Below are positions 1,208 through 58,800 of a stretch of 64,000 bases of DNA, in pieces. Position 1 is the stretch's first letter; the number at the start of each line of letters is the position of its first letter. Below the pieces are notes generated by a model. It saw only the letters and a program-made list of their open reading frames with translations. It ran no database searches and had not been told where the DNA came from. The translations under genes were made by a program, and so were the position numbers. Where the stretch lies: positions 32,001 through 96,000 of the forward strand of contig JBJOKS010000008.1 of NCBI GenBank assembly GCA_046045965.1, written 5' to 3'. This DNA comes from Cyanobacteriota bacterium (lineage in GTDB: Bacteria; Cyanobacteriota; Cyanobacteriia; Cyanobacteriales; Nostocaceae).

Positions 1208-1247
1208 CAGTGCTTAATCTCAGATGAATTGGATTGATGAAGAAGGT

Positions 1248-2252: not shown

Positions 2253-2337
2253 AGTTGCAACCCCATTAAATTGAGTCTTGTGATCTAGTAGATGGAATTT
2301 TTAGCTAACAAATAATCAAGTCAAAAGAGCGTGAAGG

Positions 2338-3990: not shown

Positions 3991-4029
3991 ACAATGTTTC
4001 TCTTCTGCTGCTAATGGTAAGCACTGCTC

Positions 4030-32462: not shown

Positions 32463-33446
32463 TTAGGGTGCGGAATGTGGGATATTAATCTTTAAGGTTT
32501 CCTGATTAGGAATTATTCTTGCATCATCAGATGATTCATCTTCAAGTGTGGAAGATGGGTTAGAACGAAGTCGAATTAAATAGAAGCCATCTTTTTCAAC
32601 CACAGGAGTTGTGTGTTTTTCTTCCTTGATCTGATACCAAATAACTGGAAGACTAGAACGATTATATATAGTTAAATAGACATCATATTTATTCAGTAAT
32701 AACGGATTTATTTGGAAGTTTAAAGAGCAACCCTGATAAATCACCCCATAGAAAAACTCGTTATTTGTATCTCCAACAGGTAAATATTCTTGCTGAACCC
32801 ATTTTTGTGATATCCATTTTTGGCAAATGAGTAGAGTGAATATGTAATAATTAAGGCAGCGATAAAAAATATTATCTCGTACTGTTAAATTTTTGAGGTA
32901 ATCGTTGATATCATCATTGTTAATTGCTTGAGTATTAATAATTTGATTTCCATCTACATTGATAGCTGGTAAATCAACCTGATCAGACCAACGATAGTAT
33001 CTTATGCCTAAAGTATATTTTCCAGGATTAAGCTTTAATTGATGCCATTGTTCCTGAAAACTTGAACCATCAGATGCTATATGTGTAATAGCTTTTGCAC
33101 TAGGGAAGCTATAAACACCAATAGTCCATGATTGGGCTGAATCTAGACAAGATTTTACATCTATGGCTAACGATTCCTTAACATCAAATGGTCCAGCACC
33201 AGCAGCAATTACATGGGGATTCCAACGGGGACCAGTAACTAGAATAGATGGTAATATTAAAGGCTTTCTTAGTAGTTCATCAGAGTATAATAGCCATTTA
33301 AAAACTGTTTTTTTGTTAAAATTTGCATTGATATTTACAAGAGTGCGTATTAAAAACCTCACAGTTTTAAAGAATATCCAAGATAAAAAAGCCAGTGGAA
33401 TTTCCCACAAAAGTTCTATATCTAAAAGGTTTTCGCTATTTCTCAT
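32463..33446 (-). CDS. Conserved hypothetical protein, DUF6208-like, last gene of the PKS operon
   Basis: WEIPLAFLS...GPRWNPH...GPFDV...SWTIGVYSFP...YLPVG motifs, recalled from a cyanobacterial DUF family; starts 24 bp after the PKS stop. Confidence 0.6.
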   Translation of the reverse strand: MRNSENLLDIELLWEIPLAFLSWIFFKTVRFLIRTLVNINANFNKKTVFKWLLYSDELLRKPLILPSILVTGPRWNPHVIAAGAGPFDVKESLAIDVKSCLDSAQSWTIGVYSFPSAKAITHIASDGSSFQEQWHQLKLNPGKYTLGIRYYRWSDQVDLPAINVDGNQIINTQAINNDDINDYLKNLTVRDNIFYRCLNYYIFTLLICQKWISQKWVQQEYLPVGDTNNEFFYGVIYQGCSLNFQINPLLLNKYDVYLTIYNRSSLPVIWYQIKEEKHTTPVVEKDGFYLIRLRSNPSSTLEDESSDDARIIPNQETLKINIPHSAP

Positions 33447-33470: not shown

Positions 33471-40148
<6,678 letters not shown>

Positions 40149-40149
40149 G

Positions 40150-43100
40150 TTATACCTCCTTGTTAAGTAGGTTTTGGATCTGTTTGAGTTTTTCGGTAAT
40201 CGCGTCCGTTGCTGGTTCTGGGGAAGTTGCTTGTTTGTCTCCAGAAACATCTACTGGTGGTTGTTGTTGACCATTGTTGGCAATTTCAACCGTCGCTGCT
40301 AGTTTTTCTGCCAAAACCTCTGTGACTAGATACTCAGCTAAAGACTCAATATTCGAGTATTCAAACAAAATTGTTGAGGAAACAGCACAACCCAAACTGG
40401 TTTGTAGCAAATTTCTTAACTCTAAAGCCAGCAAAGAATCCATTCCCATATCAAAAAATCCTAGTTGTGGGTCTAGCAGTTGAGTGTCAGGGAATCCTAG
40501 TAACTTACCGACAACACCTTGGAGATAAGTCGTCATTATTTGGAGGCGATCACTCGTTTTAGCTGCCTTTAGTTCTGCCAAAAACTCGTTAGTCTGAGTT
40601 TCTTGGACTACAGATTGAGAATCAATAAATGCCTCCAATACTGGCATCTTCATTCCTGCTGGCAATTGTGTGACAAATTGAGGCCAGTTCACAGGAAACA
40701 CCCCTACTGAAGTTGCAGATTGACCCAACAACCGATCTAAAAGTTGCAACCCCTGTTCTGGAGGAATGCTACCCATACCTAGAGAACGAATTCGGCTTTG
40801 GAATTGATCTGCTAACCGACTTGCCATACCGCTTTCTCCCCAAGCACCCCAGTTTACACTTAATCCTGGTAAACCTAGCGATCGCCGATGCTGTGCCAAG
40901 CCATCCAGGAAAGCGTTAGCGGCTGCATAATTACCTTGACCAGTTGAACCTAACAAAGATGCTGCTGAGGAAAAACCAACAAAGAAGTCCAACGGTAACT
41001 CCTGTGTTAATTGGTGCAGATGCCATCCCCCTTGAATTTTCGGAGCCATGACTTTTGTAAACCGTTCCCAGTTCATCTGCTGTAGAACCCCATCATCCAA
41101 GACTCCTGCGGCATGAATCACACCCCGCAATGGTGGTAGGGATGCCTTGATCTGTTCTACAATCCTGGCTGCATCTTGTTTAACCGCAATATCTGCCAAC
41201 AATACTGAAACTTGAACTCCGGTTTGTTCTATTTCGGTAATGGTTTGTTGTGCTGTTTCTGAGGGTTGCCGTCGTCCTGTCAATACCAAATGTTTAGCAC
41301 CCTTATCTGCCAGCCACTTAGCCAACTGTAGTCCTAACGCCCCCAGTCCACCAGTAATTAGATAACTGCCTTCAGGAGTAATGGTAATTTCTGGCTGTTC
41401 TTCAGTAATTGCCTGTTTTTGGCGTACCAGTCGCGCTACCCGACGTTCTCCCTGACGGTAAGCAATCTGATTTTCGTCTGTTGTTGAGCAGAGTTCTTGA
41501 TGTAGCTGTTGTACCAGTTCTGCTTCTGTGGTGTTCGCTTCTAAGTCAAGTAACCGACATTGCAGTTCTGGATGTTCGAGAGCTACCACCCGACCTAATC
41601 CCCACACTGGTGTTTGTTGCACTTGCACTGCTTCGCCGTCTGTACCCATACTCATCGCTCCTTGGGTGACTACCCACAAAGGAGCTACCTGTTGCTGTTT
41701 GGTCTGTACCAAAGCTTGTACCAGATGTAGCAGACTCGAACAACCAGATTCTATGGCTGTTTCTAACTGAATATCAGTTGTTGACAGATTCCACAGATGA
41801 ACAATTCCCTGAAGTTGTGAGTTTTGAGCAGTGATTTCACCTAACAGACGTTTAAATTCTTCGGGAGCAGTGGGATTAAGTTGATAGTGTTTTGCGTCTA
41901 TCTTTTGATAACTTAAACCAGGCGATACAAAAATACATCCTGTACCCAATTTTTGCACTAACCCTTGTGCCAAAGTCCCTGGTTCTGTAAATACTAACCA
42001 GTTTCCTGTTGTTTGTTGTGAAGGAGTTGAGGGTTTTTGGGCTTGCCATTCTAGTTCATAAAGCCAACGCTGTGGTGTTACCTCTGAATAAGATGATAGT
42101 TGAGCCAGTATTTGTTGATTCCACTCAGCTATTTTTTCCTTGGATAACTGTTGTTGCTTTTGAGCCGTTAGCAATACATAGCTGGCTATGCCTTTGCTGA
42201 GAACTTTACCTAATTGATAGTAAGATTTGAAACCAGACCTGACGTTATCATCACGATTTCTTTGATACAACTGCTCCAAACGTTCCTCAAAGTCTGCATC
42301 GTACAAAAAGTTAGATATTTCTGGACTCACATCAATGGCTGCAACCAATTGAAGATGATGTTCAGATAGTAACTCTACCCACTCTGATTTAGTAATAAAG
42401 TAGGAAGATGTTTCTTGGTGATCAATGGACAATTCGCTGTTAGAGATGAAATCTGCTAACACCAAATATCCCTGTTGATTCAAATGATTGCCGATATTGG
42501 TAAATAATGCTTTTTTATCGAGAATGTGGTGGGCAACTTCAAACCCAAATACTAAATCATAGTTGTCGGGAAACTCATCTTTGGCACTATCTCGATTAAA
42601 GATTTTTACCCGTTCTTGGAGTTGATTTTCGTCTGCTTTTGTGCTACCCAGTTTGGCTTGTTCACTGGAAATTGTGTAGCCATTCAATTGCAGATGTTCA
42701 TGTTTTTTGGCTAACTGAATTAAATCGGAAGCGTATCCACAGCCAAAGTCTAAAACTTTTTGACAAGCGGAAAAATCAACTTGAGCAAACAATAATTTTC
42801 TCAACTCTTTTTGAGACTCAAGAATCATCTGACGTGATTTTTCTTGATTCGGTTCGGTGAGACATTTAATCCAAGAAAAATCAGGTACTTTTTCCGGGAA
42901 TAACCCAAAGGTTAAGAATGCGGAGTCTGATTTTGCATCTTCCTGATTTCCAGCTTGTTCTTGACCCAAAATTGCGACAGCATTGTAATATTCGTGAACG
43001 ACACCACCTTTAAATTCCAGATAATTTTGCTGTCTTTTAACCAAAAGTCCCAGTAATTTTGGCAGTAATTCTCGCTCTTGTGCGGTCAGTTCCCCAGCTA

Positions 43101-45951
43101 ATTCTAATTCCTGAGCTAACCCCTCTGTTGCACCTTGGTTGAGCAATTGCACAATTGGCGTTGAAACAGTTTTATCATTGTTTTGTTCCACTTCCTGCCA
43201 ATAGCGTTGCCGTTGAAATGGATAAGTTGGCAATGTTACTTTGCGACGGGGATAATCACTATCAAATCCTGACCAATCTATTGCTACTCCTTTTGTGTAT
43301 AGTTGCCCTAAACTGGAGAGGATTTGTTGCCAATCTTCTTGCGGTGGACGTAATGAAGGCAACCAAGTACCTACTTCTTCTGGTAAACATTGACGACCCA
43401 TTCCCAGGAGTATGGGTTTAGGTCCAATTTCCATGAAGATTTTATATCCTTCCCGATGCAAAGTTTGCATACTCTGGGCAAAATGTACTGGTTGTCGGAC
43501 ATGGTTTACCCAATATTCTGGGGTGGTGATGGCTGCTGTTGCCTGTTTTCCGGTGACATTAGAAATTATGGGTATGCACGGTTGATTGTACGTAATTTCT
43601 TGAGCAATAGCTGCAAACTCCCCTAACATTGGTTCCATCAGCGGGGAGTGGAAAGCATGAGACACTTGTAGGGGTTTGGTCTTGATTCCCATGTCTGCGA
43701 AATTCTGACAAATTGCTTCTATGGCTTCACCAACACCAGAAATCACAATACTGTCTGGACCATTGATAGCTGCGATTGCTACTTTATCTGCATAAGTGGC
43801 AATTGCTTCCTTTACCTGCGACTCTGAGGCCAAAACGGATACCATCTCTCCACCGCTGGGTAACTGCTGCATTAACCTGCCCCTAGCTGCAATCAGTTTT
43901 AGTCCATCTTCTAGGCTGAATACGCCGGCTATAGTTGCTGCTACATATTCGCCTACGCTATGACCCATGACTACATCTGGTTTGATGCCCCAAGATTGCC
44001 ACAATTTAGCCAAAGCGTATTCTATGGCAAAAAGCGCAGGTTGAGTGTATGCAGTTTGATCTAAAAGTGCGGAATTTTCTACCAGTGCTGTTGATTGTGG
44101 ATAAAGCACCGATAACAAAGGCTGATCTAGGTAAGGACGCAGAATTTCATTACATTCTTCCAAAACTTGCCTAAAAGTGGGTTGAGTTTGGTATAGTTCC
44201 CAACCCATATTTACATACTGGCTACCCTGACCTGTAAACAGAAAAGCTACTTTAGGTGAACTTGTGCTAGTTGAGATTTGACCAGAAAATAGTCCAGTAA
44301 CTTCCTTACCTGCGGACAGATTGCTGAGTTTTGTAGCGAGTTCAGCTTTATCACCAGTAATCACTGCCAGTCGATGATTAAAATGCGATCGCCCTGTATT
44401 TGCGGTGTAACAAATGTCTTTTAGCTCTAATTCTGGATGATTTTCCAGATGTTGGGCATAACTACGAACTAATTCTTCCAGAGCCTTGGGAGTTTTTGCT
44501 GAGAGAGATAATATATCTAATTTACGTTCTAAAGATTCTTCTGATGGAACTTGTGCTGGTGCTTCTTCCAAAATTATATGCACGTTTGTCCCACTAATTC
44601 CGAAGGCACTGATACCCGCCATCCTGGGCTGATTACCGACATTCCAGGGAATTGCTGAAGTAGGAACTACCAAAGGCAGTTGATGCCAAGGAATATGGGG
44701 ATTGGGTTGGTTTAAGTGCAAATGGGGTGGTATTTCTTGATTCTGAAGCGATAAAACCACCTTAATCAAACCAGAAACTCCTGCTGCTGCTTCCAAATGC
44801 CCAAAATTGGTTTTGACTGAACCTACTACCAAGGGTTGATTTATGGGGCGATTTTTGCCATAAACTGCTGCCAAAGACTCTAACTCAATCGGATCTCCCA
44901 GAGATGTTCCAGTGCCGTGCGCTTCCACATAGCTGACTTGATGCGGCTCTACTCTCGCATTTTGTAGTGCTTGCTGAATTACTTCTTTCTGAGCCATTTT
45001 GTTGGGAACTGTCAGACCGCTACTTGGTCCGTCATGGTTGACAGCCGAACCTCGAATCACCGCTAAAACGTTATCACCATCAGCTATAGCATCGGAAAGA
45101 CGTTTTAGAACTACCATTCCACATCCTTCTCCCTGTCCATAACCATCTGCGGAAACATCAAATGTTTTGCAGCGACCATCTGGAGCTAAGGCTTTCAATT
45201 GGCAACGAGCAATAGTGCTGAGTGGCCAGAGAATCAGATTTACTCCACCGGCGAGGGCAAGATTAGATTCTTGGGAACGCAAGCTCTGGCAAGCTAGATG
45301 GACAGTTAGTAATGAAGAGGAACAGGCAGTATCTAGCTGAATATTCGGACCTTGTAAGCCAAGGAAGTGAGAAATACGACCTACAGCCATACTGCGGGCG
45401 TTACCTGTACCAGAATGACTATCAAATAAGTGGAGCTTTTCCAGACTCACATTCCGTTGGCCATAGTCATCTGTGCAAATACCTACATATACACCTGTTT
45501 GGCTATTTCTGAGTTTTGTTGGTGTTTGTCCGGCATTTTCTAGAGCTTCCCAAGTAACTTCTAAAAGCAGTCTTTGTTGAGGGTCTAAACTTACTGCTTC
45601 TCTGGGAGAAATCCCAAAAAATACAGGATCGAACTGGTCTACTTTTTCGATAAAACCACCTTGTTTGGTGTATGTTTTCCCAGGTTTATCGGGATTGGGA
45701 TCATAGAAGGCATCAACATCCCAGCGACCAGGTGGGACTTCTGTTACACCATCAATACCTTCATGCAATAAACGCCAGAATGAGGCAGAGTCATTGGCAT
45801 TACCAGGAAATCTGCAACCTAAACCAATAATGGCAATAGGTTCAGTTTTTTCTTTGTTGACTGCTTCCAGTCTATTTCGCATTTCTTTGATAGTTTGAAG
45901 CACTTGTTGAGAGGAAACAATTTGTTGTTCTGTCTCTGAATTATTAGTCAT
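40150..45951 (-). CDS. Type I PKS module KS-AT-O-methyltransferase-KR-ACP (CurL-like) [PKS4]
   Basis: Intact KS; malonyl AT (HAFH); [14 protein letters not shown] and [21 protein letters not shown]; start ATG 45951. Confidence 0.9.
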
Positions 45952-45952
45952 T

Positions 45953-48900
45953 TTATATTTCTTGGTGAAGTAAAAGTTGAATTTCTTTAAGTTCATCCTG
46001 AAGAGCAGTCGCAATTAGTTCCTCTTGAATGGCCTTGGCGATCGCTTCTTCATCTAATGCTTTGAGTTCTCTATCAACAAACTGTTGTTGATTCTCATTG
46101 CTATCAATTTCCAATTTCTGCTCTAATTCCCCTCCGAAAATCTTTGTTATTAAATACTTGGCCAGCTTTTGAATATTAAAATGCTCAGACAATGTGGTTA
46201 CTGAAATAGAACAATTGAAACTTGTTTCTAATAGATTCCTGAGTTCGAGCATCGTCGAATAGTTCATACCCATATCAAAGAATCCTAACTGTGAATCTGG
46301 ACTTTGGGTATCATCAAATCCTAACAATTGAGTAATCAAATCTTGCAGGTAATTTATCATTAGCTGCTGGCGTTCTCCCTGGGGAGTTTTCTCCAGTTTT
46401 TGGAAAATTCCTAAGTCTTGTGCTGGCGATTGATCATATTCTTGAAACCGAGTAGTTAAAATTTTTAGGAGTTTAGGTAGCAATTTTTGCTCTTGTTCTG
46501 TCAGTTGTTCCTGGAAATTCAACTCATCTGCTAACTGCTCCGTATTAATTTTATTTAGTAATTCAGCAATTGTATTTAGGCTATTGTCCAGGATATCTTG
46601 TTGATGTCCATTTTGTTGATTTCTTTTTTCAGAAGTTTCCAGCCAATAGCGTTGTCTTTGAAACGGATAAGTAGGCAGTGCTACTTTGTGTCTCGGATCA
46701 TCTCGGTCAAACCCGGACCAGTCCACTTTCACCCCTTTTACATACAACTGCCCTAAACTGGAAAGCATCTGTTGCCAATCTTCTTGATCAGGATTTAATG
46801 AAGGCAAGCATAATCCCAAATCTTCTGATAAATATTGCTGTCCTATTTCTACGAGTATTGGCTGCGGACTAATTTCCAAAAATAGTTTATATCCTGACTG
46901 ATGCAGAGTTTGCATACTCTGAGTAAAATCCACAGGTTGTCCGATCTGGTCTATCCAATATTCAGGAGTGGCAATTTCTGATGTGGCTTTTTCTCCAGTT
47001 AGATGAGATATGATCGGGATCTGAGGCTGGCTGTAGGTAACTCCTTTAGCTACCGCTTCAAATTCCCCTGATCTAGATTCTACGAGCCTTGCTCTAGTTG
47101 TAATCAGTTTCAGTGCATCTTCTAAGCTGAATACTCCAGCAACAGTTGCTGCTACATATTCGCCTATACTATCACCCATCACCACATCTGGTTTGATGCC
47201 CCAAGATTGCCACAATTTAGCCAAAGCGTATTCTATGGCAAAAAGTGCTGGTTGGCTATAAGCGGGTTGGTCTAGTAGAGATGAACTTTGCTTATCTATG
47301 GTTGGAGGATAGAGAACGGAAAGCAGGGGATATTCTAAATCACCACGGAGAATTTGATCACATTGGTCGATGGCTTGCCGAAATACAAATGTTTTTTGAT
47401 ACAAATCCTTTCCCATTTGTACATACTGGGAATCTTGAGCGGTGAATAAGAAGGCTACTTTCGGCGAACTAGCATTGCTAGGTAATTGCCCGGAAAATAG
47501 TCCATTTACCTGTTCAGCTTGTAAATAATGATGGAGTTTTTCTGCTAATTCTTGTTGGTTAGTGGCGATCGCAGCTATTCGATGGTTAAAGTGGGCGCGT
47601 CCAGTATTGGCTGTATAACAAATGTCTGCTAGTTCCAATTCCCGATGATTTTCCAGATGATTGCGGTAAAGACTGACTAACTCTTCCAGAGCTTGTGGAG
47701 TTTTCGCCGACAAGGTTAATAGATGAAGTGGACGTTCGCTGGCATTCTCTATTTTCGCTGGAACGGGGGCTTCTTCTAAAACGACATGAGCATTGGTACC
47801 ACTAAAACCAAAAGAGCTAACCCCCGCAATTCGTGTTTGCGAATTAACTGACCAAGGAGTGAGTTGAGTTGGGACACTAACTGGTAGTTGATCCCAGTTG
47901 ATGTAAGGATTAGGCTTCTTCAGATGCAAATGGGGAACAATTTCCTGATGTTGCAATTGTAGGACGACCTTGATCAGACCTGCTATACCCGCCGCCGCTT
48001 CTAAGTGACCCATATTGGTCTTGAGTGAACCAATCATCAAGGGATTTTCTTGGCAATGATTCCCACTAAATACTGCCCCTAATGCCCCCACTTCAATGGG
48101 GTCTCCCAGAGATGTACCTGTACCGTGGGCTTCAATATAACTGACCTGGGATGGTTCAACCCCGCCATTTTCTAAAGCCTGAGAAATGACTTTTTGCTGG
48201 GATGGTCCATTGGGTACTGTCAAACCGCCAGAAGAACCATCATGGTTAATGGCAGAGCCTCGAATCAATGCTAAAATATTATCTTGGTTTTTGATCGCAT
48301 CTGAGAGTCGCTTGAGGACAATCACACCACAACCTTCCCCCCGCACATAACCATCCGCGTCGGCATCAAAGGTTTTACAACTACCATCAGGAGATAACAT
48401 TCTCGCCCGTGAGAAGACGATGCTGCCTTCTGGTGAGAGCAGCAAGTTTACCCCACCTGCTAAGGCCAGACTACACTCCTGCTGACGCAAGCTTTGACAG
48501 GCTAAGTGTACAGCGACTAAGGAAGAAGAACAAGCGGTATCTACAGCCAAAGAAGGTCCAGTTAATCCCAGAAAGTATGAAAGTCTGCCGGCAACAGTGC
48601 TGTAAGCATTGCCAGTGCCAAAATAAGCATTGAGTTCCTTAGCTGCTGAAAGTCTTCTAGCGTAATCATTATTACAAATACCAATAAATACTCCTGCGGG
48701 GCTGTCAGATAACTTTTCAGGGACTTGATGAGAATCTTCTAGGGCTTGCCAACTCACTTCCAGCAATATGCGCTGTTGGGGATCAAGACTCATTGCTTCC
48801 CGAGGTGAAATATTAAAGAAACTCGCATCAAAAGTCTCTACGTCATTGACAAAACTGCCGTAACGGGTATACATTTTGCCGATCGCATTGGGATCGGGGT

Positions 48901-49150
48901 CATAGTAGGCATCAGCATCCCAGCGAATTTTCGGCACTTCGGTAATGGTATCGACTCCATCGCGCAAGATCCGCCATAATACTGCTGGATGATCAATTCC
49001 TCCTGGGAATCGGCAGCCCATACCAATAATTGCAATTGGTTCAGTCTGGGCATATTCTAAAGCATCCAACTTAGATTGCATCTTCTCTAGTTGAAGTAGA
49101 CCATCTGCCAGCAAAGACTTATAGTCTATACTTCTTGGCTCTTGCTTCAT
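45953..49150 (-). CDS. Type I PKS protein KS-(inactive AT)-(inactive ACP) [PKS3]
   Basis: KS triad intact. AT reads TAQDSQ and GDSIG and lacks the HAFH subdomain. ACP reads GMNYS in place of GMDSL. Confidence 0.88.
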   Translation of the reverse strand: MKQEPRSIDYKSLLADGLLQLEKMQSKLDALEYAQTEPIAIIGMGCRFPGGIDHPAVLWRILRDGVDTITEVPKIRWDADAYYDPDPNAIGKMYTRYGSFVNDVETFDASFFNISPREAMSLDPQQRILLEVSWQALEDSHQVPEKLSDSPAGVFIGICNNDYARRLSAAKELNAYFGTGNAYSTVAGRLSYFLGLTGPSLAVDTACSSSLVAVHLACQSLRQQECSLALAGGVNLLLSPEGSIVFSRARMLSPDGSCKTFDADADGYVRGEGCGVIVLKRLSDAIKNQDNILALIRGSAINHDGSSGGLTVPNGPSQQKVISQALENGGVEPSQVSYIEAHGTGTSLGDPIEVGALGAVFSGNHCQENPLMIGSLKTNMGHLEAAAGIAGLIKVVLQLQHQEIVPHLHLKKPNPYINWDQLPVSVPTQLTPWSVNSQTRIAGVSSFGFSGTNAHVVLEEAPVPAKIENASERPLHLLTLSAKTPQALEELVSLYRNHLENHRELELADICYTANTGRAHFNHRIAAIATNQQELAEKLHHYLQAEQVNGLFSGQLPSNASSPKVAFLFTAQDSQYVQMGKDLYQKTFVFRQAIDQCDQILRGDLEYPLLSVLYPPTIDKQSSSLLDQPAYSQPALFAIEYALAKLWQSWGIKPDVVMGDSIGEYVAATVAGVFSLEDALKLITTRARLVESRSGEFEAVAKGVTYSQPQIPIISHLTGEKATSEIATPEYWIDQIGQPVDFTQSMQTLHQSGYKLFLEISPQPILVEIGQQYLSEDLGLCLPSLNPDQEDWQQMLSSLGQLYVKGVKVDWSGFDRDDPRHKVALPTYPFQRQRYWLETSEKRNQQNGHQQDILDNSLNTIAELLNKINTEQLADELNFQEQLTEQEQKLLPKLLKILTTRFQEYDQSPAQDLGIFQKLEKTPQGERQQLMINYLQDLITQLLGFDDTQSPDSQLGFFDMGMNYSTMLELRNLLETSFNCSISVTTLSEHFNIQKLAKYLITKIFGGELEQKLEIDSNENQQQFVDRELKALDEEAIAKAIQEELIATALQDELKEIQLLLHQEI

Positions 49151-52100
49151 TTTATGTTTTCCCCTTTGAGGCTAGATAGTTTTTGGGCAAATAGGTTAGC
49201 AATTTCATCTTGAGACATTTCTTGTAATTGATCTTTGAATTGATCCAAGGAATCAGCCTCCGGCTCTGGGGCTTTTAAGTTAGAATCAGATGAAACAAAA
49301 AACTCCAGAGAAAGAACATCTGACACCAGATGATCCACCAGCTTTTCCAATGTAGGATAGTCAAACAGGACTGTAGAACTGATGGATTTCCCTAAACTGG
49401 ATTGGAGATGATTTCTCAACTCCACCGCCATCAAAGAATCTATTCCCAAGTCAAGTAACGATTCTCGTAACCCTATCTGCTTAGGTAATGTTACCCCCAA
49501 AACTTTGGCGGCTTGCTCCTGAACATGAATCACTAACAACTCCCGACGCTCTTCCACTGGAGTCACTTCCAGTCGCTGCATAAAATTGGACTTCCCTTTC
49601 CCCATATTTGACTGCCCCATCGTGGAAGTAAAAGCCTCCAAAAACGGCATCTTAGTCCCAATAGGTAACTGCTTCAAGAAATCAGACCAGTTGATTGACA
49701 AGACTCCCACCTGAGTAGCATCTTGTGCCAACAAGTCAGCCAATACCTGCAAACCTCCTTCAGCAGAAATGGGAATGAGTCCCTGAGTCAATATTCGATG
49801 CTGATGCTGACTTCCCAGACGTGCAGCCATTCCTCCTTCCGCCCACGGTCCCCAGTTAACACTCAGTCCCGGTAAACCCATTCCTCGTCGATAGTGAGCC
49901 AAGGCATCCATGAAAGCATTAGCGGCTGAATAATTCCCTTGACCTGGTGACCCCAGCACGGAAGCGATGGAAGAGAAACAAATGAAAAAGTCCAACGGTA
50001 GATGCTCAGTCAAGGTGTGCAGATACCAAGCCCCTTGGACTTTCGGTGCCATCACTTGTGTAAATCGCTCCCAACTCATCTGTTGCATTAAACCATCATC
50101 CAATACCCCCGCTGCATGAACTATACCTCGTAACGGTGGTAAAGATGTTTCGATTGACTCCAGAATTTTAGTCACATCTTCTGCTTGGGAGATATCCCCA
50201 CACAGAACTAATACCTGTACTCCTGCCTTTTGCAATTCTTCAATGCTTTGTTGAGACAAATCTGATGGCGGTTTACGTCCAGTAAGGACTAAATGTTTGG
50301 CTCCTTGTTCTGCCATCCACTTCGCTGTATGTAACCCCAGTGCGCCCAAACCCCCGGTAATTAAGTAACTGGCTTCGGGTTGAATCGAAGCTGGTTTTTC
50401 ATCAGTTTCATCAGCTTGTGGCATCGATACTACGACCTTGCCAATGTGTTTGCCTTGCTGCATATAGCGAAAAGCTTCCACAACCTGTTCGATGTCAAAG
50501 ACTTTATGAGGTAAAGGCTTTAAATAACCTTGTGCAAATTGCTGTCCCAAACAGTCCATGATTTGGGTAATTAAACCCGGATTTTCTTGAGCCACTTCCC
50601 CTAAGTCGAAGGGAAAATACTGAGCATCTGGTCTTTTCTGTTTGACCTGATCTTCATCCCAAATCCCAATTTTGCCAATTTCCACGAACCGCCCCCCGGG
50701 CGCTAAAACCTCAAAGCTCTTGGTAATAAATTCCCCATTCAGACTATTGAGTACCACATCCACACCCTGTCCCTGGGTAAGATGCATGACTTCTGCGGCA
50801 AAATCTAAAGTCCGGGAGTTCATCAGATGTTTCACACCCATAGATTTGAGAAATTCCCATTTGGAAGGGCTGGCCGTCGCAAATATTTCTGCTCCCGCTT
50901 GTTGTGCTATCTGCACTGCTGCTTGCCCCACTCCTCCTGCCGCAGCATGAATTAATACTCTGTCTCCTGGTTGAATTTTCGCTAGGTTATGTAACCCATG
51001 ATAAGCAGTGGAGAAGACTAAGGGAATGGTTGCTGCTGCAAATGAGTTCATCTGTTTGGGTTGAAGAACTACAAACTCGGCTCTGGCGGTGATAAAACTA
51101 CTCAAAGCACCAGGCAGAAGGTTGGCCATCACTTCATCCCCCACTTGCAAATGAGAAACCCCTTCTCCAACTGCCACAATTGTGCCGGCACATTCAAACC
51201 CAAAAGTCAGTTGTTCGGCACTGGTAATGCCGAGATGTTGGGCATAGTAATCTTTCAGCAGCCCTAAAGCATTCAGTACATCGCGGAAATTCAGTCCTAC
51301 AGTTTTCACTCTTATTTCCACTTCCTGTGGACCTGGGGAGCGACGTTCCATTGGTTGTAAGCTGAGATTGTCTAACAACCCATATTCTGATAACTTCAGT
51401 TGGAATGGTTGTTGCGAGGAAATTTCTAATCTGCCTTGTGTGGATCTTAGAGCTTTTTGTTGCCGTGTTAACCTGGCAACATGACGTACCTGTTGACGGT
51501 AAGCGATTTGGTTTTCATCACCAGGGGATAATAATTCCTGCAACAAAGTTGGTACTGCTTGGAAATCTTCTCCAGCAGGATCTAAGTCTAAACACCGACA
51601 TTGTAATTCCCCATTTTCCTGGGCAATTGTTCGCCCCAGTCCCCACAGTGGGCTTTGTTGAAACTGTATATTATGTGACTTATTACCCACTGATTGAGCG
51701 CCTTGAGTCACTAGCCACAATGCAGGGGGATTTTTTATTTGTTGATTTTTGACTATAGCTTGTACTAAGTGAAGTACGCTGCCACAACCCAATTCTTGGG
51801 ACTTTTGCAACTCCTGTGCCGATGTTGGTGTTGTTAGTGTTGCTTGTAAACTCCACAGATGGACAATTCCTCGTAATGGGGGTTGCTGCTCTAAGCTCTC
51901 TTGCAATAGGCGCGGGAATTCACTGACATTAATCGGATTGATTTGATAATGATGGGATGCTAACTGCTGATAATTCTCCCCTGGTGTCACTAAGATACAA
52001 TGCTGACCTTGTTTTTCTAAGGATTCTGCCAGTTGTTTGCCTATACCTGTGGGTGGGGAAAACAGTAGCCAGCTACCTGGTTTTGTTAAGTCAATGGATT

Positions 52101-55100
52101 GGTTTGCCGGTGACGTTGATTGCGGTTGCCAATGGATTTGATATAACCAATTACTGACATCTGGTCTGAGAGTATTTAGTAAGGCTTGGCGAGAAGTACG
52201 TAATACGGTTAAACCTTCTACTTGAGCTACTACTATTCCCTGTTCATCCAATATCCGGACAACACCTGTCAACGTTCGTTCATTGGTTTTGATTGCACCT
52301 ATCTCTACTTGCGTCCACAGATGATTACTAGCAGGACGATAAACTTGTAGCCGTTTTATGTTGACTGGTAAGTAAGTACTCTGATTTTCAGTTTCATCAA
52401 AAGCAGCAGCCAACAGATGGAAACTAGCATCTAACAGCACGGGGTGCAGTTGGTATTTTGTTGCTTCTGGGACTAAGGTTTCTGGTAACTGAATTTTACC
52501 TAGTGCTTTTCCTTGACTGCGCCACAGTTGCTGAACAGCTTGGAAACTTGAACCGTAATCAATGCCTCTATCTCTATACTCTTGGTAGAAGTCTTGAGGT
52601 GATATTTGTTGATGATACTCGGCTTTAATGGCTTTTAAGTCCGTTTTTTCTAGTTCATCATCCTGATCCCCTGCCAGCAATTTTCCTTGTGCATGTAGAA
52701 TCCACCTCGATTCTGACTTCTGAGAATCCATCTCCAGACTCAAAATCTCGAAACTATAAGTTTGCGCTTCTTGTGGGGTTAATACAACCTGAATCGTTTT
52801 GATTTCATCTTCTGATAAAATCAGTGCTTGTTGAATAACAACATCTTCTAGGATTAAATTTTCTGATTTGAATAAAGTTGCACCTGCTGCTAAAGCTATT
52901 TCTAGATAACCTGCTCCTGGAAAAACGGGTTTAGAAAAAACACAATGGTGTTGCAGGTAAGTCGGATGGGAAGCACTGAGAAGGCACTGAAAACGAATTT
53001 GCTGTTCTAAGCCAGCTAAATACAATCTCTGACCAAGTAGAGGGTGAAGATTCTCATGGTTTGATAAAAATTGGGTTTTATTCGTCAGATTATTATCTGT
53101 CTCCCAATACCGTTGCCGTTGAAAGGGATAGGTGGGCAACACCACTTTACTATGGGAATAATCTTGCTCAAAGCCTAACCAATCTACTTTCATTCCCCGC
53201 ACATATAATTCTCCCAAGCTCTGTAGTATTTGTTGCCAGTCTTCTTGACCCGAACGCAAAGAAGGCAACCAAACCCCAACTCCTTCTGGCAAACACTGTC
53301 TTCCCATCCCTAACAATATTGGTTTGGGTCCTATTTCTAGGAAGATTTCATAACCTTCTTGGTGCAATGTCTCCATGCTTTGGGCGAATTTCACTGGTTG
53401 GCAGACATGATTTACCCAGTAGCTGGCTGTGGTAATACTCTCGTCGGCTCTTGCTCCTGTGACATTCGATATCAATGGAATCCGAGGTTGATGGTAGGTT
53501 ATTTGATTGGCTACTGCTTCAAATTCCGCTAACATCGGTTCCATTAAGGGTGAATGAAAAGCATGAGATACTTGTAGCTGTTTGGTCTTGATTCCTTCTG
53601 CTTCTAAGCTCTCCCTCAGTTTTCCAATGGCTTCTGCTTCACCAGAAATGACAATGCTCACAGGTCCGTTGATGGCAGCTATGGCCACTTTTTCTGTGTA
53701 TGGGGCAATCAGTTGATTTACTTTCTCTGGGGATGCCATCACAGCTAACATCTCACCACCGTGAGGTAACTGCTGCATTAACCGTCCCCGATGGGCTATC
53801 AGTTTGAGTCCATCTTCTAAACTAAATACTCCTGCTACACAAGCTGCGACATATTCCCCAACACTATGACCCATCACCCCATTTGGTTTCATCCCCCAAG
53901 ATTCCCATAACTTAGCCAGGGCATATTCAACGGCAAATAAGGCAGGTTGAGTATACGCGGTTTGGTCTAGCAAAGAGGAGCTTGACGCTTCCTGCGTGTT
54001 AGGATAAATAATTTCTAGAAGTGTATGTTCCAGATAGGAACTGAGGATTTGCTCACATTGATCTAAAGCTTGGCGGAAAGTCGGCTGAGTTTCATACAGT
54101 TGTCGCCCCATGTTCAGATATTGGCTACCTTGACCTGTGAATAGGAAGGCTACTTTGGGCGCACTGCTACTACTTGGTAGTTGTTCTGAAGATATTCCTG
54201 CTGCTTCTGACCCGGCTTTGTGTTGCAGAAGTTTTTCTGTTAGTTCCTGTTGGTCAGAGGCGATAATGGCTAGACGATGGTTGAAGTGGGCGCGTCCAGT
54301 ATTGGCTGTATAACATACATCTGCAACTGCTAATTCTGGATGAGTTTCTAAATGATGTTGATAACGACTGACTAAATCTTCAAGGGCTGTTTCTGTTTTT
54401 GCCGATAAGGTTAATATATGGAGTGGACGTTCTAAATTATCTTCACTTTTGCCTGGGGATTTTTGATTTTTGACTGGCTCAGGAAATTCTTCCAAAACTA
54501 TATGGGCATTAGTGCCTCCCATGCCAAAAGAACTAATCCCTGCTATTCTTGCTTGACCTGGACAAGACCAAGGCATTAATGAGGTAGGAATTTTTATCGG
54601 TAATTTATCCCAATCTACATGGGGGTTAGGTTGTTTAAAGTGTAAATGAGGTGGAATTTGCTGATGCCCAAGTGCTAAAACCACCTTAATCAAAGCTGAT
54701 ACACCTGCTGCTGCTTCTAAATGCCCAAGATTAGTCTTTACTGAGCCAACAACCAAAGGTTGATCCACTGGACGATTTTTGCCGTATATTGCTGCTAGAG
54801 CTTCTATCTCTATGGGATCTCCTAAAGAAGTTCCTGTGCCGTGAGCCTCGACATAGGTTATTTGATGGGGTTCTAACTTGGCATTTGTCAGTGCTTCTTG
54901 AATGACCTGTTTCTGAGCCATTCTATTGGGAACTGTGAAAGCACTACTTGGTCCATCGTGGTTAACAGCAGACCCTCGAATCACTGCTGAGATTAAATCA
55001 CCATCAGCAATAGCATCGGATAAACGCTTTAAAACTACAACACCACATCCTTCTCCCTGACCATAACCATTGGCAGAGGCATCAAAAGTCTTGCAACGAC

Positions 55101-55875
55101 CATCTGGAGATAGTGCTTTTAATTGGCAGCGACCTATCGTGCTGGTGGGCGCTAAGATCAGATTGACTCCACCTACTAATGCTAAGTTGGATTCTCCTGA
55201 ACGCAAGCTCTGAGAAGCCAGATGGATAGCAACTAGAGAACTTGAACAAGCTGTGTCTATCTGTATATTAGAGCCTTGTAAACCCAATAGATGAGAAATA
55301 CGACCGACACCAACACTTCTACTCTTACCGAGAGCAGAGTAAGTACCAGCACTTTGATTTTGGTGCATGATACTCAAGGCAGAATAGTCATCTGTGGAGA
55401 TGCCGATGAAAACACTTGTCTTGCTATTCTTCAGGTTAGCCCATGTTTGTCCGGCATTTTCCAGTGCTTCCCATGTCACTTCCAACAGTAGTCTGTACTG
55501 AGGATCTAAACTAATTGCTTCCCGAGGAGAAATTCCAAAAAATAGGGGATCAAACTGGTCAAATTGATCAATAAATCCCCCCTCTTTGGTGTAGGTTTTT
55601 CCAGCAACTTCTGGGTCTGGATCGTAATAAGCATTAACATCCCAACGCTGAGGAGGCACTGGTGTAATGGCATCTATGCCATCATGTAATAAGTTCCAGT
55701 ATGTCGATAGGTCATTAGCACCACCAGGAAATCGACAGGCCATGCCAACAATAGCGATTGGTTCGGTTTTGGCTTTATTTACTGCTTCCAGCTTACTTCG
55801 CATTTCTTTGAGAGCTTGAAGCACTGCTTGAGATGAGAAATTTTGTTGGGTTGTTTGAGAAATATCACTAGCCAT
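49147..55875 (-). CDS. Type I PKS fully reducing module KS-AT-DH-ER-KR-ACP [PKS2]
   Basis: DH HPLLG...[15 protein letters not shown]...[35 protein letters not shown]. Confidence 0.92.
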
Positions 55876-55876
55876 T

Positions 55877-58800
55877 TTAGTTCTCCTCCTTTAGCAAAGC
55901 CTGGATTTCTTGTAATTCTGCCGCGATCGCAATATCAATTTCCTCTGGCGTTTCCCTATTGGGAGGAGGTACATTTGGCAGATTTTGACTGTTTTTAAGT
56001 TCAAGTTCTTGGTCTTGACCTTCTGGGAAAATTTCCTTAATTAAGTATTCTGCCAAGTCTTGGATATTAGAAGTCTCAAACAATGTAGCCGTACTAATAG
56101 AACAACCAAAAGTAGAACTCAACAGATTTCTCAATTCGACAGCAATCAATGAATCCATTCCCATTCTAAAGAATCCTAATTCTGGCTGAGGAAGTTGAGA
56201 TTTCGAGAATCCTAATAAGTTACCTATTTTTACTTGAAGATAATGAATCATAATTTGGTGGCGTTCAATCTCGACTGCTGCTTTCAGTTGTTCCAAAACT
56301 TCTTGACTCTTGGTTTCTTTCTGTTGTTTTGAAACCAATGCTTCTAAGCATGGCATTTTTACACCACCAGGCAAATGTTCGGCAAATCTAGACCAATTGA
56401 TCGGAAATACTCCTACTTGACTGACTGGCTGTGATAATAGCTCTCCTAATATCTGTAATCCTTTTTCTTGAGTTATAAAACTCATTCCTGTTGCACGTAG
56501 CCGATTTTGATGTTGACTTCCTAGACGAGCTGCCATTCCCCCTTGCTCCCAAGCCCCCCAGTTGATGGTTAATCCTGGTAATCCCATGCTCTGACGATAG
56601 TAAGCTAAAGCATCCATAAAGGCATTCGCCGCCGCATAGTTTCCTTGACCTGCTGAACCAAGTAAGGATGTGATGGAGGAAAAACAAACAAAGAAGTCTA
56701 GTGGTAGTTTCTGAGTTAAGTGATGTAAATGCCAAGCTCCTTGTAATTTTGGAGCCATAACTTTCCGAAACCGCTCCCAGTTCATCTGCTGTAAAACACC
56801 ATCATCTATGATTCCTGCTGCATGAATCACACCTCGTAATGGTGCTGGAGATTCCTCAATCAGCTTCAGGATACTAGCGACATCTTGTTCCTCAGATATA
56901 TCTCCTAGTCTGACTGATATTTTTGCTCCTGTTTGTTCCAACTGCTGAATAGTTTCCTGGACTCTTGCTGAGGGGGGGCGACGTCCGGTTAATACTATAT
57001 GTCGCGCGCCCTGTTTAATCATCCATTGAGCTACTTCCAATCCCAAAGCTCCCAGACCACCAGTCACTAAATAACTTGCTTCTGGTTTTAGTGTTATTTG
57101 TTGCTGTTGTTCTGAGATTTGATCTGGCGATCGCCTGACTAATCTAGCTACATAACGCTCTTTTCCACGGATGGCTATTTGGTCTTCATCGTCAGGATTT
57201 AATATTTCCTTGGCTAATGCTTCTAATGTTTCTGAGCTTTGGGTTTGGTCTACATCAACTCGCCGACATTTTAGCTCTGGGTGTTCTAATGCTATCACCC
57301 GACCCAAACCCCATAAAGGTGCTTGCTGTACTTTTACTTGCTGTTGATTTTCTTCTACATTTTGTGTTTCTTGGGTCACTAACCATAGAGGTACTACTGA
57401 TCTCGGATCTGATCCCATTGCTTGCACTAAATGTAGTACACTTGCACACCCTAGTTCTTGAGCAGTTTCCAACTCTTCTGTTGAGGTATTAATACTCCAT
57501 AAATGAACGACTCCTACTAATTTATTTTGAGTAGTCAACAACTCTTTTATTAGTTGTTTAAACTCTTGGGCATTGGTGGGGTTCAGTTGATAGTGTTGCT
57601 TGTCTAACTGATTGTAGCTAGATCCAGGAGTGACGATGACACAATTCTGATTCTGTGCTTCTAAAACTGTTTTTAACTCTTGGGTTGGTTCGTCGGCAGC
57701 GAATATTAGCCAATTCCCTGTCTCCTTTGGTGAAATTGACTTTTTCTGGGGAGATTGCGTGACTTTCCATTTCAATTCGTAAACCCATTGTTTAACTGCC
57801 ACTTCTGAGTAAGATAACAGTTGACTTAGAATTTGTTGGTTCAACTGATAAATTTGCTGTTTGGGAATTTCCTCTTGTTTTTTAGCCGTTAATAATACAT
57901 AGCTGGCTAATCCTTTTCTGAGCAGCTTTCCTAACTGATTGTAGGAGCGAAAAGCAGATTTAATATTCTCGTCATGACTTTTTTGCTCTAATTCATGTAG
58001 ATTATCTTCAAATTCAGGATCTTCCAAATAGTTAGCTATTTCCTGACTGATATCTATGGCTTGAATGAGTTGCAGATGATTTGTTGATAGTTGCTCTACC
58101 CAATGCTGTTTGGTAATAAAGTAAGAGGAAGTTTCTTCATGGTCGATATCAAAGTCTCCATTGGCAATAAAATCTGCCATGACTAATAATCCTGCTTCCT
58201 GAAGATGCCTACTTATATTAGAAAATAACAGGGATTTATTTTTAATATGATGAGCTACTTCAAATCCAAATACTAGGTTATAGTGATCAGGAAATTCATC
58301 TTTGGAGCTATCTCGGTTAAAAACTTGGATCTGCTCTTGCAGTTGATAGGCATGAATTTGGCTTGTGGCAAATTTAGCTTGTTCACTGGAAATCGTATAA
58401 CCATTCAGTTGCAGGTGTGGGTAAGTTTTGCCTAATGTGATTAAATCTGAGCCATATCCACAACCAAAATCTAATACTTTCTGACAGGACGAGAAATCTA
58501 CTTGTGCAAAACACAGGTTTCTTAGCTCTTTCTGTGACTCTAGCAAAGCTGTTTGATATGTTGGGTTTTGATGGGGGTTGGTAAACACTTTTACCCAGCA
58601 AAAACCAGGGATAATTTCTGGTAATATCCCAAAGGTGATGAATTGTAGTGATTTACCTTCTGTCTGTTCTTCTTGGCTTAACTTTGCTTTACTAACTTCT
58701 GTAAAGGAATTATAGTAATCATGAACTACATTGCCTTTAAATTGAGAAGAATTTTGATGCCGCTCAGTTAAAATTCTGAGCAACTTGGGTAACAATTTTT

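Follow-up and report, generated by a model that had tools for sequence, protein, structure and literature searches.

The presence of five consecutive PKS genes in a cyanobacterium of the family Nostocaceae raises the question of how the encoded proteins find their partners and, in particular, whether one of them, PKS4, could dock onto itself and thus extend its chain repeatedly. Docking domains determine how the subunits of an assembly line follow one another, and they serve engineers as connectors. A preliminary description of this DNA had proposed that PKS4 carries mutually compatible ends, so that self-transfer could compete with transfer to PKS5 and give chain-length congeners, and that PKS1 could bypass PKS2 and PKS3. 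The DNA analyzed here (the window) is a stretch of 64,000 nucleotides from contig JBJOKS010000008.1, and all positions refer to it.

Gene Layout and Relatives of the Cluster

All five PKS genes are contiguous and intact. They and the adjoining gene are laid out as follows:

55877..61759, minus strand: PKS1, KS-AT-O-methyltransferase-KR-ACP, 1960 aa (ORF/translation, Pfam domains)
49147..55875, minus strand: PKS2, KS-AT-DH-ER-KR-ACP, 2242 aa (ORF/translation, Pfam)
45953..49150, minus strand: PKS3, KS, truncated AT and ACP-like domain, 1065 aa (Pfam, alignments)
40150..45951, minus strand: PKS4, KS-AT-O-methyltransferase-KR-ACP, 1933 aa (ORF/translation, Pfam)
33471..40148, minus strand: PKS5, KS-AT-KR-ACP-sulfotransferase-thioesterase, predicted CurM-type offloading (ORF, Pfam, GTG start)
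32463..33446, minus strand: DUF6208 protein adjoining the cluster (Pfam, E 3.4e-102)

The interval 40150-45951 corresponds exactly to the PKS4 gene, with its ATG at 45951, one base past the PKS3 stop, and its TAA at 40150-40152. PKS5 starts with a GTG at 40148, preceded by AAGGAGG, and this start is supported by the ATG found at the equivalent position in genome G409. A DUF6208 homolog also flanks the cluster in G002, G022, G409 and G245. As for the relatives of the individual genes, the KS part of PKS1 (nt 1-1449) and the first PKS gene of G002 show 79.6% identity, PKS2 shares 87.9% amino acid identity with the G020:C220 gene, and PKS4 has orthologs in eight genomes, with 75-95% amino acid identity. 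Compared with its congeners, the window cluster shows an indel of two modules, and relatives with three proteins exist.

Docking Domains at the Four Junctions

The regions considered as docking heads (N-terminal) and tails (C-terminal), with the residues found at the positions discussed below, are the following:

55880..55954, minus strand: PKS1 tail docking helix (ETPEEIDIAIAAELQEIQALLKEEN), E24, LL at 31-32 (translation, register)
55762..55875, minus strand: PKS2 head docking region, K70, R73, V65 (translation, register)
49150..49248, minus strand: PKS2 tail docking region, K24, hydrophobic pair 31-32 absent (translation, register)
49040..49150, minus strand: PKS3 head docking region (IDYKSLLADGLLQLEKMQSKLDALEYAQTEP; string quoted earlier, DYKSLLADGLLQLEKMQ), E70, Q73, G65
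45956..46066, minus strand: PKS3 tail docking region, two helices (LDEEAIAKAIQEEL / IATALQDELKEIQLLLHQEI), E24, LL at 31-32
45838..45951, minus strand: PKS4 head docking region, K70, R73, V65 (alignments to orthologs and to CurL 4MZ0)
40153..40215, minus strand: PKS4 tail docking helix, 21 residues, K24, LL at 31-32 (ortholog alignment, register)
40056..40148, minus strand: PKS5 head docking region (VNQPLSSQQLFELLEQVHNKLEAVDREKTEP; string quoted earlier, SSQQLFELLEQVHNKLEAVDREKTEP), E70, H73, L65

The PKS5 head has just five residues ahead of SSQ, and PKS1 has a Gln/Glu-rich N-terminus without a coiled-coil head. In a structure-sequence search, residues 4-44 of PKS4 aligned with residues 6-46 of CurL (4MZ0), with E values of 0.012 (the 45-residue head by itself) and 5e-46 (once the start of the KS was included); judged at this level, the likeness between the two heads reflects homology and not chance. 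The layout of class 2 domains, with a tail after the ACP and a head before the next KS in adjacent genes, is found at all four junctions in the order of Pfam domains. From these sequence features, the heads and tails of the five proteins are assigned to class 2 (curacin-type) docking domains. As to the helical bundle that two tails form with the head dimer in this class, the tail sequence gave no match among solved structures. The hydrophobic positions 6, 9 and 17 of the first helix are fitted by the CurK tail of locus L018; the PKS3 tail does have a first helix, its hydrophobic residues being offset by about one position, and in the PKS1 and PKS4 tails a Pro-rich stretch replaces this helix.

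In PKS4, 30 of the 45 head columns are invariant among seven orthologs, and a 12-residue stretch of the tail is invariant among six. The two-helix PKS3 tail is kept in all nine PKS3-like proteins, and the combination of PKS2 tail and PKS3 head recurs in G020, G224 and G141. The nearest relatives of the PKS1 tail are a tail of G020 and that of L034 (VDHAIAAELQEIKNLLKEGN), which belongs to the gene following a CurL-identical gene.

The preliminary description had grouped the PKS2, PKS4 and PKS5 heads as one type, and the PKS1, PKS3 and PKS4 tails as its matching type. Every docking peptide that it quoted is present in the translations, but the grouping held only in part. The PKS2 and PKS4 heads are indeed alike (20/26 residues in common, counted by eye), whereas those of PKS4 and PKS5 share 14/26 and, at the interface N65-N73, none of nine (VLQTIKEMR vs. 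LFELLEQVH, also counted by eye). Likewise, the PKS4 tail reads EKLKQI (K, Q), in contrast to AELQEI and DELKEI (E, E) in the PKS1 and PKS3 tails. The assignment of the PKS2 tail and the PKS3 head to a different pair was borne out (K24/E70, lacking the hydrophobic 31-32 pair, and G65), and the statement that PKS3 converts one docking type into the other is correct as a description.

A Two-Position Code in Natural Junctions

According to the review PMC9113145, which also gives the definition of class 2 docking domains, E24 of CurK forms a salt bridge with K70/R73 of CurL, the salt-bridge sites differ between docking pairs, and the CurK tail binds weakly to non-cognate heads. A total of 118 natural junctions was gathered from loci, 103 of which were put in register (8 rows by hand), with 59 being non-redundant at 70% identity. 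The numbering was based on 4MYY and anchored on the CurK>CurL junction of L018, with L6, I9, L17, L59, K70 and R73 in place. The 15 omitted junctions comprised 12 without a recognizable or registrable tail and 3 with a shortened head; one of the former, L057 (G141), would read R24/K70 under a naive register, although the heptad there is offset by one residue.

Residue 24 of the tail and residue 70 of the head bore opposite charges in 87 of the 103 junctions, either as acid/base (58; 32 in the non-redundant set) or as base/acid (29; 17 non-redundant). One side was neutral in the remaining 16, and like charges were found in none of the 103. Fisher's test on the non-redundant set gave p = 1.5e-13, a value inflated by relatedness, as related sequences are not independent; C24-N73 and C24-N70 were within the top three covarying pairs. 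A second layer concerns the hydrophobic tail pair 31-32, which goes with a hydrophobic residue at head position 65: such a residue was present in 56 of the 63 junctions with the pair and in none of the 40 without it. The polarity code, as read from these alignments, is required yet does not suffice: in G283, which has a curacin-like line, the CurL-identical gene combines an E24 tail with a K70/R73 head, ends of compatible charge, and therefore other features must also discriminate. A rule of this kind (opposite charge at 24/70; hydrophobic residues at 31-32 and 65) would make partner prediction and re-wiring in cyanobacteria testable with a few point mutants.

Predicted Pairing Within the Window

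Along the line, polarity alternates (E24>K70, K24>E70, E24>K70, K24>E70), and thus the two ends of each internal subunit are like-charged. E24 is predicted to face K70/R73 at PKS1>PKS2 and PKS3>PKS4, and the pair is swapped to K24/E70 at PKS2>PKS3 and PKS4>PKS5. When all tails and heads of the window were combined in a matrix, the four cognate pairs satisfied both layers of the code, the PKS4 tail clashed in charge with the PKS4 head, and the only non-cognate fits were the PKS1 tail with the PKS4 head and the PKS3 tail with the PKS2 head. The code would consequently allow just two off-path dockings, PKS1->PKS4 (skipping PKS2 and PKS3) and PKS3->PKS2. We consider it probable, with some reservation, that the four junctions are class 2 pairs whose order PKS1-PKS2-PKS3-PKS4-PKS5 is predicted by the two-position code, and that the PKS4 tail is unable to dock its own head.

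Hence, the vague notion of a "same type" turns into definite predictions: no self-docking of PKS4 and a single possible shortcut, PKS1->PKS4. The first contradicts the mutually compatible ends attributed to PKS4, given that K24 would face K70/R73 of its own head and that the pairing with PKS5 is charge-swapped and separately conserved. In fact, a K24 tail together with an E70/H73 head is found in all six clusters with a PKS5-type partner (the window, G002, G022, G141, G384 and G409), and the two PKS4-like genes without such a partner (G168 and G245) lack the K24 tail. The second agrees with the proposed PKS1-to-PKS4 bypass, which both layers permit and which stands as a possibility; the KS of PKS4 would likely accept a β-methoxy chain. 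The PKS4 head is likely occupied by a PKS3-type E24 two-helix tail, as judged from gene order and sequence: a PKS3-like gene with this tail lies directly upstream of the PKS4-like gene in eight of nine clusters, and in the ninth, G020, the two genes are at separate loci on different contigs, the matching ends still being kept.

PKS3 Keeps Its KS but Not Its ACP Serine

PKS3 has an intact Cys-His-His triad in its KS. However, it has neither the ACP serine nor the complete AT of a canonical elongating module. Its ACP-like domain, recognized by Pfam (PP-binding) with just 27.9 bits, aligns a Tyr with the phosphopantetheine serine (GMNYST vs. GMDSLL), and its AT, matched by Pfam in two pieces, presents GDSIG instead of GHSxG and a deletion of the small subdomain of about 65 residues with HAFH. 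The Ser-to-Tyr change and the KS triad are common to all nine PKS3-like proteins, and the reading frame is open in all nine clusters. The AT is truncated in eight of the nine proteins and has lost its active-site serine in five; that of G141 is full-length, and that of G168 keeps both catalytic motifs and has lost the subdomain between them. Because a serine directly follows the Tyr in seven of the nine, a shifted phosphopantetheine attachment site is conceivable and may exist in these domains. The loss of the ACP serine leaves five KS and four serine-bearing ACP in the line, and, as the PKS3 tail follows a serine-less ACP-like domain, the PKS3>PKS4 pair cannot perform the usual ACP-to-KS hand-over.

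Probable Product and Iteration of PKS4

The methyltransferase domains of PKS4 and PKS1, both located between AT and KR, matched the O-methyltransferase structures of StiD/StiE (6ECU/6ECT, E 4e-71) and StiE/StiD (6ECX, E 2.4e-71), respectively, and are assigned by this similarity to the StiD/StiE type. In PKS5, the domains following KR-ACP (Pfam Sulfotransfer_3 and Abhydrolase_1) matched the CurM ST (4GBM, E 1e-148) and the CurM TE (3QIT, E 2.4e-144), and its end is annotated as a CurM-type ST-TE predicted to offload a terminal alkene. The polymethoxy-1-alkenes of Nostocales are isotactic, with a repeating CH(OMe)-CH2 unit and a terminal alkene with a C4 methoxy; the congeners form a homologous series, from hepta- to dodecamethoxy, and include one isomer with a single methylene gap (PMC3497026). 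Judged by its architecture, the cluster family likely makes these lipids. No gene cluster linked to them was present in the literature found and, their biosynthesis being undescribed in the literature searched, the window provides a candidate.

The architecture fits polymethoxy-1-alkenes, whose assembly needs one O-methylating module to run for many rounds; this, together with the putative O-methyltransferases of PKS1 and PKS4, the CurM-type ST-TE of PKS5 and the count of five KS against four serine-bearing ACP, makes it likely that PKS4 iterates. The anticipated outcome, chain-length congeners, is thus probably right, but not the mechanism, as the grounds are the product and the KS/ACP count and not self-docking. 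Handing a chain back inside a single module is not known to depend on docking domains.

Alternative Readings and a Proposed Mechanism

It is very improbable that PKS4 docks its tail onto its own head, either head-to-tail or inside the dimer, and that this drives iteration in competition with PKS5. Both ends fall in the same broad class 2 family with common flanking motifs, iteration is likely on product logic, and a bound tail would keep the ACP close to its own KS; yet, apart from a like-charge contact with no counterpart among the registered junctions, the near-invariant head is likely taken by the upstream PKS3-type tail, and it has no interface residue in common with the PKS5 head. A strictly collinear, non-iterative line of five modules, in which docking does no more than order the modules and a short methoxylated terminal alkene results, appears rather unlikely, even though collinearity is the default in cis-AT lines and the contiguous, intact genes have cognate junctions that all obey the code: PKS3, with its ACP serine missing and its AT incomplete, cannot be a normal module, the conservation of this state together with the KS triad argues for a selected KS-only role, and three-gene relatives would yield only very small products. 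The truncated AT, the tyrosine in the ACP, the AT serine lost in several relatives and the two-module indel could instead suggest that PKS3 is a decaying relic of a broken or rerouted pathway, the docking likeness reflecting the shared ancestry of recombined modules. This reading is improbable in view of the open frames, the KS triad and the two-helix tail maintained among the relatives, and of the ends that match in G020 in spite of the separation of the genes.

As a tentative proposal, the family may represent an undescribed polymethoxy-1-alkene synthase in which PKS4 is reused many times and is served by two ketosynthases, its own and that of PKS3. Its ACP would hand the chain back to its own KS, docking domains not being used for this, and PKS3, anchored to PKS4 through its two-helix tail, would serve as a KS-only primer that works with the PKS4 ACP. 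By its swapped charge, the PKS4 tail would keep the terminating module, PKS5, exclusive to PKS4, and docking of the PKS1 tail onto the head of PKS4 would yield gapless congeners alongside gap-bearing ones. The tail is pentyl in the reported gapless polymethoxy-1-alkenes and propyl in the gap isomer (PMC3497026), so a simple bypass does not interconvert the two. These side findings point to an unusual build, a KS-only helper docked on an iterating module.

Comparison with Known Systems

According to the review PMC9113145, the docking structures of the curacin synthase, CurG/CurH (4MYY) and CurK/CurL (4MYZ), were reported by Whicher et al. (2013). The window resembles this system in its tail helices after the ACP and coiled-coil heads before the KS, in the alignment of the PKS4 head to that of CurL, in the E24-K70/R73 pairing predicted at PKS1>PKS2 and PKS3>PKS4 and, with regard to a curacin-like line, in the identity of the PKS1 tail to the L034 tail at 15 of 20 residues (counted by eye). 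It differs in the swapped charges (K24 with E70) at PKS2>PKS3 and PKS4>PKS5, and in a PKS3 tail that follows an ACP-like domain without serine.

PKS4-PKS5 recall CurL-CurM of curacin A, an O-methylating module followed by KR-ACP-ST-TE, in the order KS-AT-MT-KR-ACP, in the CurM-type ST and TE, and in a predicted chain end that is likewise a 4-methoxy-1-ene. However, the PKS4>PKS5 junction has the swapped K24/E70 instead of the CurL/CurM-type E24/Q70-R73, and the window encodes only five proteins (three in relatives), one with a dead ACP, which implies the repeated use of the O-methylating module. As regards the polymethoxy-1-alkenes themselves, a DH-ER-KR module after an O-methylating one (PKS2 after PKS1) would give a single methylene gap.

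Programmed iteration, or "stuttering", by individual modules of modular PKS is exemplified by aureothin AurA and borrelidin. PKS4 would resemble them in running several rounds, with more extensions than modules, and would differ in having a separate KS-only protein docked on the iterating PKS4 and a variable number of rounds, predicted to give a homologous series.

Organization of the Gene Cluster

Five contiguous type I polyketide synthase (PKS) genes occupy the minus strand of the window:

55877–61759, minus strand: PKS1, KS-AT-MT-KR-ACP
49147–55875, minus strand: PKS2, KS-AT-DH-ER-KR-ACP
45953–49150, minus strand: PKS3, KS, partial AT, ACP-like domain
40150–45951, minus strand: PKS4, KS-AT-MT-KR-ACP
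33471–40148, minus strand: PKS5, KS-AT-KR-ACP-ST-TE

The interval assigned to PKS4 in the preliminary description matches the gene exactly (ATG at 45951, TAA at 40150–40152), and all the peptides quoted there were found in the translations. The PKS4 ATG lies one base past the PKS3 stop codon, and PKS5 begins after the PKS4 TAA with a GTG at 40148, preceded by an AAGGAGG sequence. The methyltransferases (MT) of PKS1 and PKS4 are of the O-methyltransferase type, matching StiD/StiE with E values of 2.4e-71 and 4e-71, respectively, and the end of PKS5 matches the sulfotransferase (4GBM, E 1e-148) and the thioesterase (3QIT, E 2.4e-144) of CurM. No acyl-activating enzyme or free ACP was found in window positions 1–30 kb or in the 16 kb past its high end, and no loader of the PKS1 KS was seen in the window or 16 kb beyond.

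Several features of the neighborhood were also recorded. At the N-terminus of PKS1 (61600–61759), a Gln/Glu-rich extension of about 45 residues (MNQNSQQDQ...) replaces the coiled-coil head, and such an extension is shared by the protein encoded first in the three-gene relatives described below. Upstream of PKS1 lies a single very large ORF (62050–63999, continued at 3–3941 of locus L076) in which four Laminin_G_3 repeats and a lengthy tract of DDEE(L/S)T repeats accompany DUF7910 and, at the C-terminus, DUF6200. The relative genome G002 encodes, upstream of its cluster, a 1570-aa protein with the same C-terminus. A DUF6208 protein (32463–33446) adjoins the cluster, as it does in G002, G022, G409 and G245, and none was seen beside the G141, G384 and G168 clusters when ORFs of 280 aa or longer were considered. 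The DUF6208 gene neighbors one for a Ser/Thr protein kinase (30513–32168) whose tail is long and rich in Pro, Thr, Ser and Gln. An ABC1-type kinase gene (L076, 7623–9392) is found near the cluster in four genomes, the others being G002, G022 and G020 (contig C332). Finally, a sugar-modifying block (1–9970), encoding two DegT-type aminotransferases, an epimerase/dehydratase, hexapeptide acyltransferases and glycosyltransferases, bears no relation to the PKS genes as far as could be seen.

Cluster Forms and Conserved Docking Pairs

The relatives G002 (same genus; PKS4 95% and PKS5 92% identical in amino acids) and G022 (same family) carry only three PKS genes. In this form, the first protein (1073–1120 aa) consists of a PKS1-like KS followed by a PKS3-like remainder, and orthologues of PKS4 and PKS5 come next. 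Comparison of 45953–61759 with the corresponding loci (L011/L012 in G002, L013/L014 in G022) showed that the two forms differ by a two-module indel, that is, two 'AT-to-KS' units, the joints falling in the linker that follows the KS (PKS1 nt ~1449, PKS3 nt ~1687): PKS1 nt 1–1449 and PKS3 nt 1687–3198 share 79.6% and 83.3% DNA identity, respectively, with the first PKS gene of G002. The longer form is also carried by G020 (same family) and G141. In G020, one contig (C220, locus L070) bears PKS1-like, PKS2-like (88% aa) and PKS3-like (78%) genes, a second (C332, L074) a PKS4-like gene (83%) preceded by unrelated genes, and a third (C317, L075) a PKS with a PKS5-type head. G141 has a run of PKS2-, PKS3-, PKS4- and PKS5-like genes, G384 and G409 have PKS3-, PKS4- and PKS5-like genes, and in G168 and G245 the PKS3- and PKS4-like genes precede different partners. 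A close donor of PKS2 was sought among 301 genomes of the order, where the best match to its C-terminal half reached 64%; the G020 protein, found later, is 87.9% identical. A recent in-cluster duplication as the origin of the look-alike ends was ruled out by the DNA identities (PKS1/PKS4 66.7%, PKS2/PKS4 70.9%, PKS4 and its G002 orthologue 94.3%).

The pairs formed by a tail (the C-terminal docking region after the ACP) and the next head (the N-terminal region before the KS) recur among these relatives. The PKS4 head [18 protein letters not shown] is the partner of the PKS3-type tail, made of two helices and ending in ELKEIxLLL, in nine of nine clusters, and the PKS3-like gene is directly upstream of the PKS4-like one in eight of them, the exception being G020, where they are on separate contigs. 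The PKS4 head is invariant in 30 of 45 alignment columns (seven orthologues). Likewise, the PKS4-type tail TDAIxxK(L/F)xQIQNLLN precedes the head SSxQL(F/L)xLLEQVHxxLE in all six clusters with a PKS5-type gene, and the two PKS4-like genes with other partners (G168, G245) are without such a tail. The PKS2 tail and PKS3 head appear as the same pair in G020, G224 and G141. The nearest counterparts of the PKS1 tail and PKS2 head come from G020, from four genomes belonging to a single genus (L036–L039) and from the junction in L034 that follows the CurL-identical gene. The PKS3-like gene of G020 is followed by unrelated genes; the matching docking ends are nonetheless kept across its three contigs.

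A Charge Code from Natural Junctions

The PKS4 head aligned to residues 6–46 of the CurL chain 4MZ0. The ends in the window therefore belong to the class 2 docking domains, which serve cyanobacterial cis-AT lines, and represent a variant of this known type. According to excerpts of a review, the class 2 interface is mostly hydrophobic and specificity is thought to come from salt bridges, which in CurK/CurL join tail E24 to head K70 and R73 and whose sites differ from one pair to another; binding of the CurK tail extends, less strongly, to the heads of CurH and CurM (PMC9113145). Searches of the PDB with the 43-residue PKS4 tail gave no match, and those with a 103-residue ACP-plus-tail piece matched ACP domains only. 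A complex prediction with two PKS4 heads and two PKS4 tails, each supplied as an alignment, obtained a very low score and a low mark, and is neutral as to binding.

Each KS head was paired with the end of the upstream ORF in all loci collected (118 rows), using 4MYY numbering anchored on the CurK>CurL junction itself (locus L018), which shows tail L6, I9, L17 and E24 and head L59, K70 and R73 at the positions given in the excerpted text (PMC9113145). Fifteen rows were dropped, 12 lacking a recognizable or registrable tail (several with a non-PKS upstream protein) and three with a head four residues short, and eight were put in register by hand, leaving 103 rows, or 59 non-redundant at 70% identity.

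Charges at tail position 24 and head position 70 in natural junctions (all rows; non-redundant rows)
Tail acid, head base: 58; 32
Tail base, head acid: 29; 17
One side neutral: 16; 10
Like-charged: 0; 0

For the non-redundant set, the p value by Fisher test is 1.5e-13, a figure inflated by relatedness, and the pairs C24–N73 and C24–N70 (tail C, head N) are both within the top three covarying column pairs. The swapped charge state was found in many unlike tail families and so arose more than once. A second layer was apparent at head position 65, hydrophobic in 56 of 63 junctions whose tail has a hydrophobic pair at 31–32 and in none of the 40 whose tail lacks it. This position alone was used, since the heads form a continuum; a clean head dichotomy matching the two tail shapes was rejected. 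The CurL-identical gene combines a K70/R73 head with an E24 tail, so avoidance of compatible own ends is not universal, and the code must be regarded as necessary but not sufficient.

Disfavored Self-Docking of PKS4 and a Possible PKS1-to-PKS4 Shortcut

Code positions in the five synthases
PKS1: tail 24 E, 31–32 LL; no head
PKS2: tail 24 K, 31–32 EN; head 70 K, 73 R, 65 V
PKS3: tail 24 E, 31–32 LL; head 70 E, 73 Q, 65 G
PKS4: tail 24 K, 31–32 LL; head 70 K, 73 R, 65 V
PKS5: no tail; head 70 E, 73 H, 65 L

All four cognate junctions satisfy both layers. Polarity alternates along the line, and thus the own ends of every internal subunit are like-charged. The preliminary description had grouped the ends into matching types, a real observation but too coarse a grouping, and had proposed on this basis that PKS4 can dock to itself. 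Such self-docking is disfavored, because the PKS4 tail K24 clashes with K70/R73 of its own head, and none of the 103 natural junctions is like-charged. For two further pairs, PKS4 tail/PKS3 head and PKS2 tail/PKS5 head, the charge fits but the second layer fails; the only non-cognate pairs passing both are the PKS1 tail with the PKS4 head and the PKS3 tail with the PKS2 head. The shortcut from PKS1 to PKS4, also proposed earlier, is thus possible as judged from these positions, and it would deliver a beta-methoxy chain, the kind of substrate that the KS of PKS4 would meet at each round. As the PKS1 tail would compete with the two-helix PKS3 tail for the PKS4 head, the shortcut is expected to be minor.

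PKS3, a KS with an ACP-like Domain Lacking the Carrier Serine

PKS3 does not have the make-up of a normal module. In each of the nine PKS3-like proteins (relatives taken from loci L011–L014 and L057–L070), the ACP motif is G(M/L)(N/D)Y(S/A), as compared with G(M/I)DSL in PKS1, PKS2 and PKS4 (in the window, GMNYST versus GMDSLL), the carrier serine being replaced by Tyr and followed by Ser in seven and Ala in two. The AT small subdomain is gone in eight of the nine and the AT active-site serine in five, whereas the Cys-His-His triad of the KS and the two-helix tail are kept in all. Since the PKS3 ACP lacks the carrier serine, the line has five KS domains for four serine-bearing ACPs, and the PKS3>PKS4 docking pair cannot be used for the usual transfer from ACP to KS. 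The tail would instead hold the PKS3 KS on PKS4, where this KS would catalyze the initial condensation, using the ACP of PKS4. PKS1 has a KS of the kind found in the leading protein of the three-gene relatives, but fused to an AT-OMT-KR-ACP predicted to be working, which would be consistent with priming by the PKS3 KS on the PKS4 ACP. This putative arrangement, in which an iterating module would carry a docked KS-only partner whose own ACP is dead, is a side finding that deserves follow-up.

Probable Iteration and Comparison with Polymethoxy-1-alkenes

When a CurM-type module acts after an O-methylating one, the expected chain end is a 4-methoxy-1-ene. The whole set (33471–61759) combines two modules that O-methylate and one that reduces fully with a terminal-alkene module of the CurM type, and this architecture fits the one-gap polymethoxy-1-alkenes. 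Literature searches found no gene cluster tied to these compounds, for which the present one is a candidate deserving follow-up. Should the assignment be correct, PKS4 would have to iterate, and the congener series would be set by how many rounds it performs. The outcome anticipated in the preliminary description, iteration of PKS4 giving congeners, is then likely, on grounds independent of docking and probably not by the self-docking route envisaged there. The chain would return from the PKS4 ACP to PKS4's own KS; back-transfer in known iterating modules is not known to depend on docking domains.

As described in excerpts of the report on polymethoxy-1-alkenes, known from Aphanizomenon, Tolypothrix and Scytonema, they are built of alternating CH(OMe)-CH2 units and form a homologous series from hepta- to dodecamethoxy; the gapless congeners have a pentyl tail, and one isomer, with methoxy groups at 4–18 and 22, has a single methylene gap and a propyl tail (PMC3497026). 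By our own arithmetic, the latter could arise from a butyryl starter, a methoxy unit from PKS1, full reduction by PKS2, eight rounds of PKS4 and, last of all, PKS5. The three-gene form would yield the gapless series. A simple bypass linking the gap and gapless nonamethoxy-pentacosene isomers was rejected: given the different tails in the excerpted data, propyl versus pentyl, the shortcut, although permitted by both layers, fails to explain their co-occurrence (PMC3497026). The 4-methoxy-1-ene end of these compounds, as given in the same source, is exactly that predicted for PKS4–PKS5 (PMC3497026).
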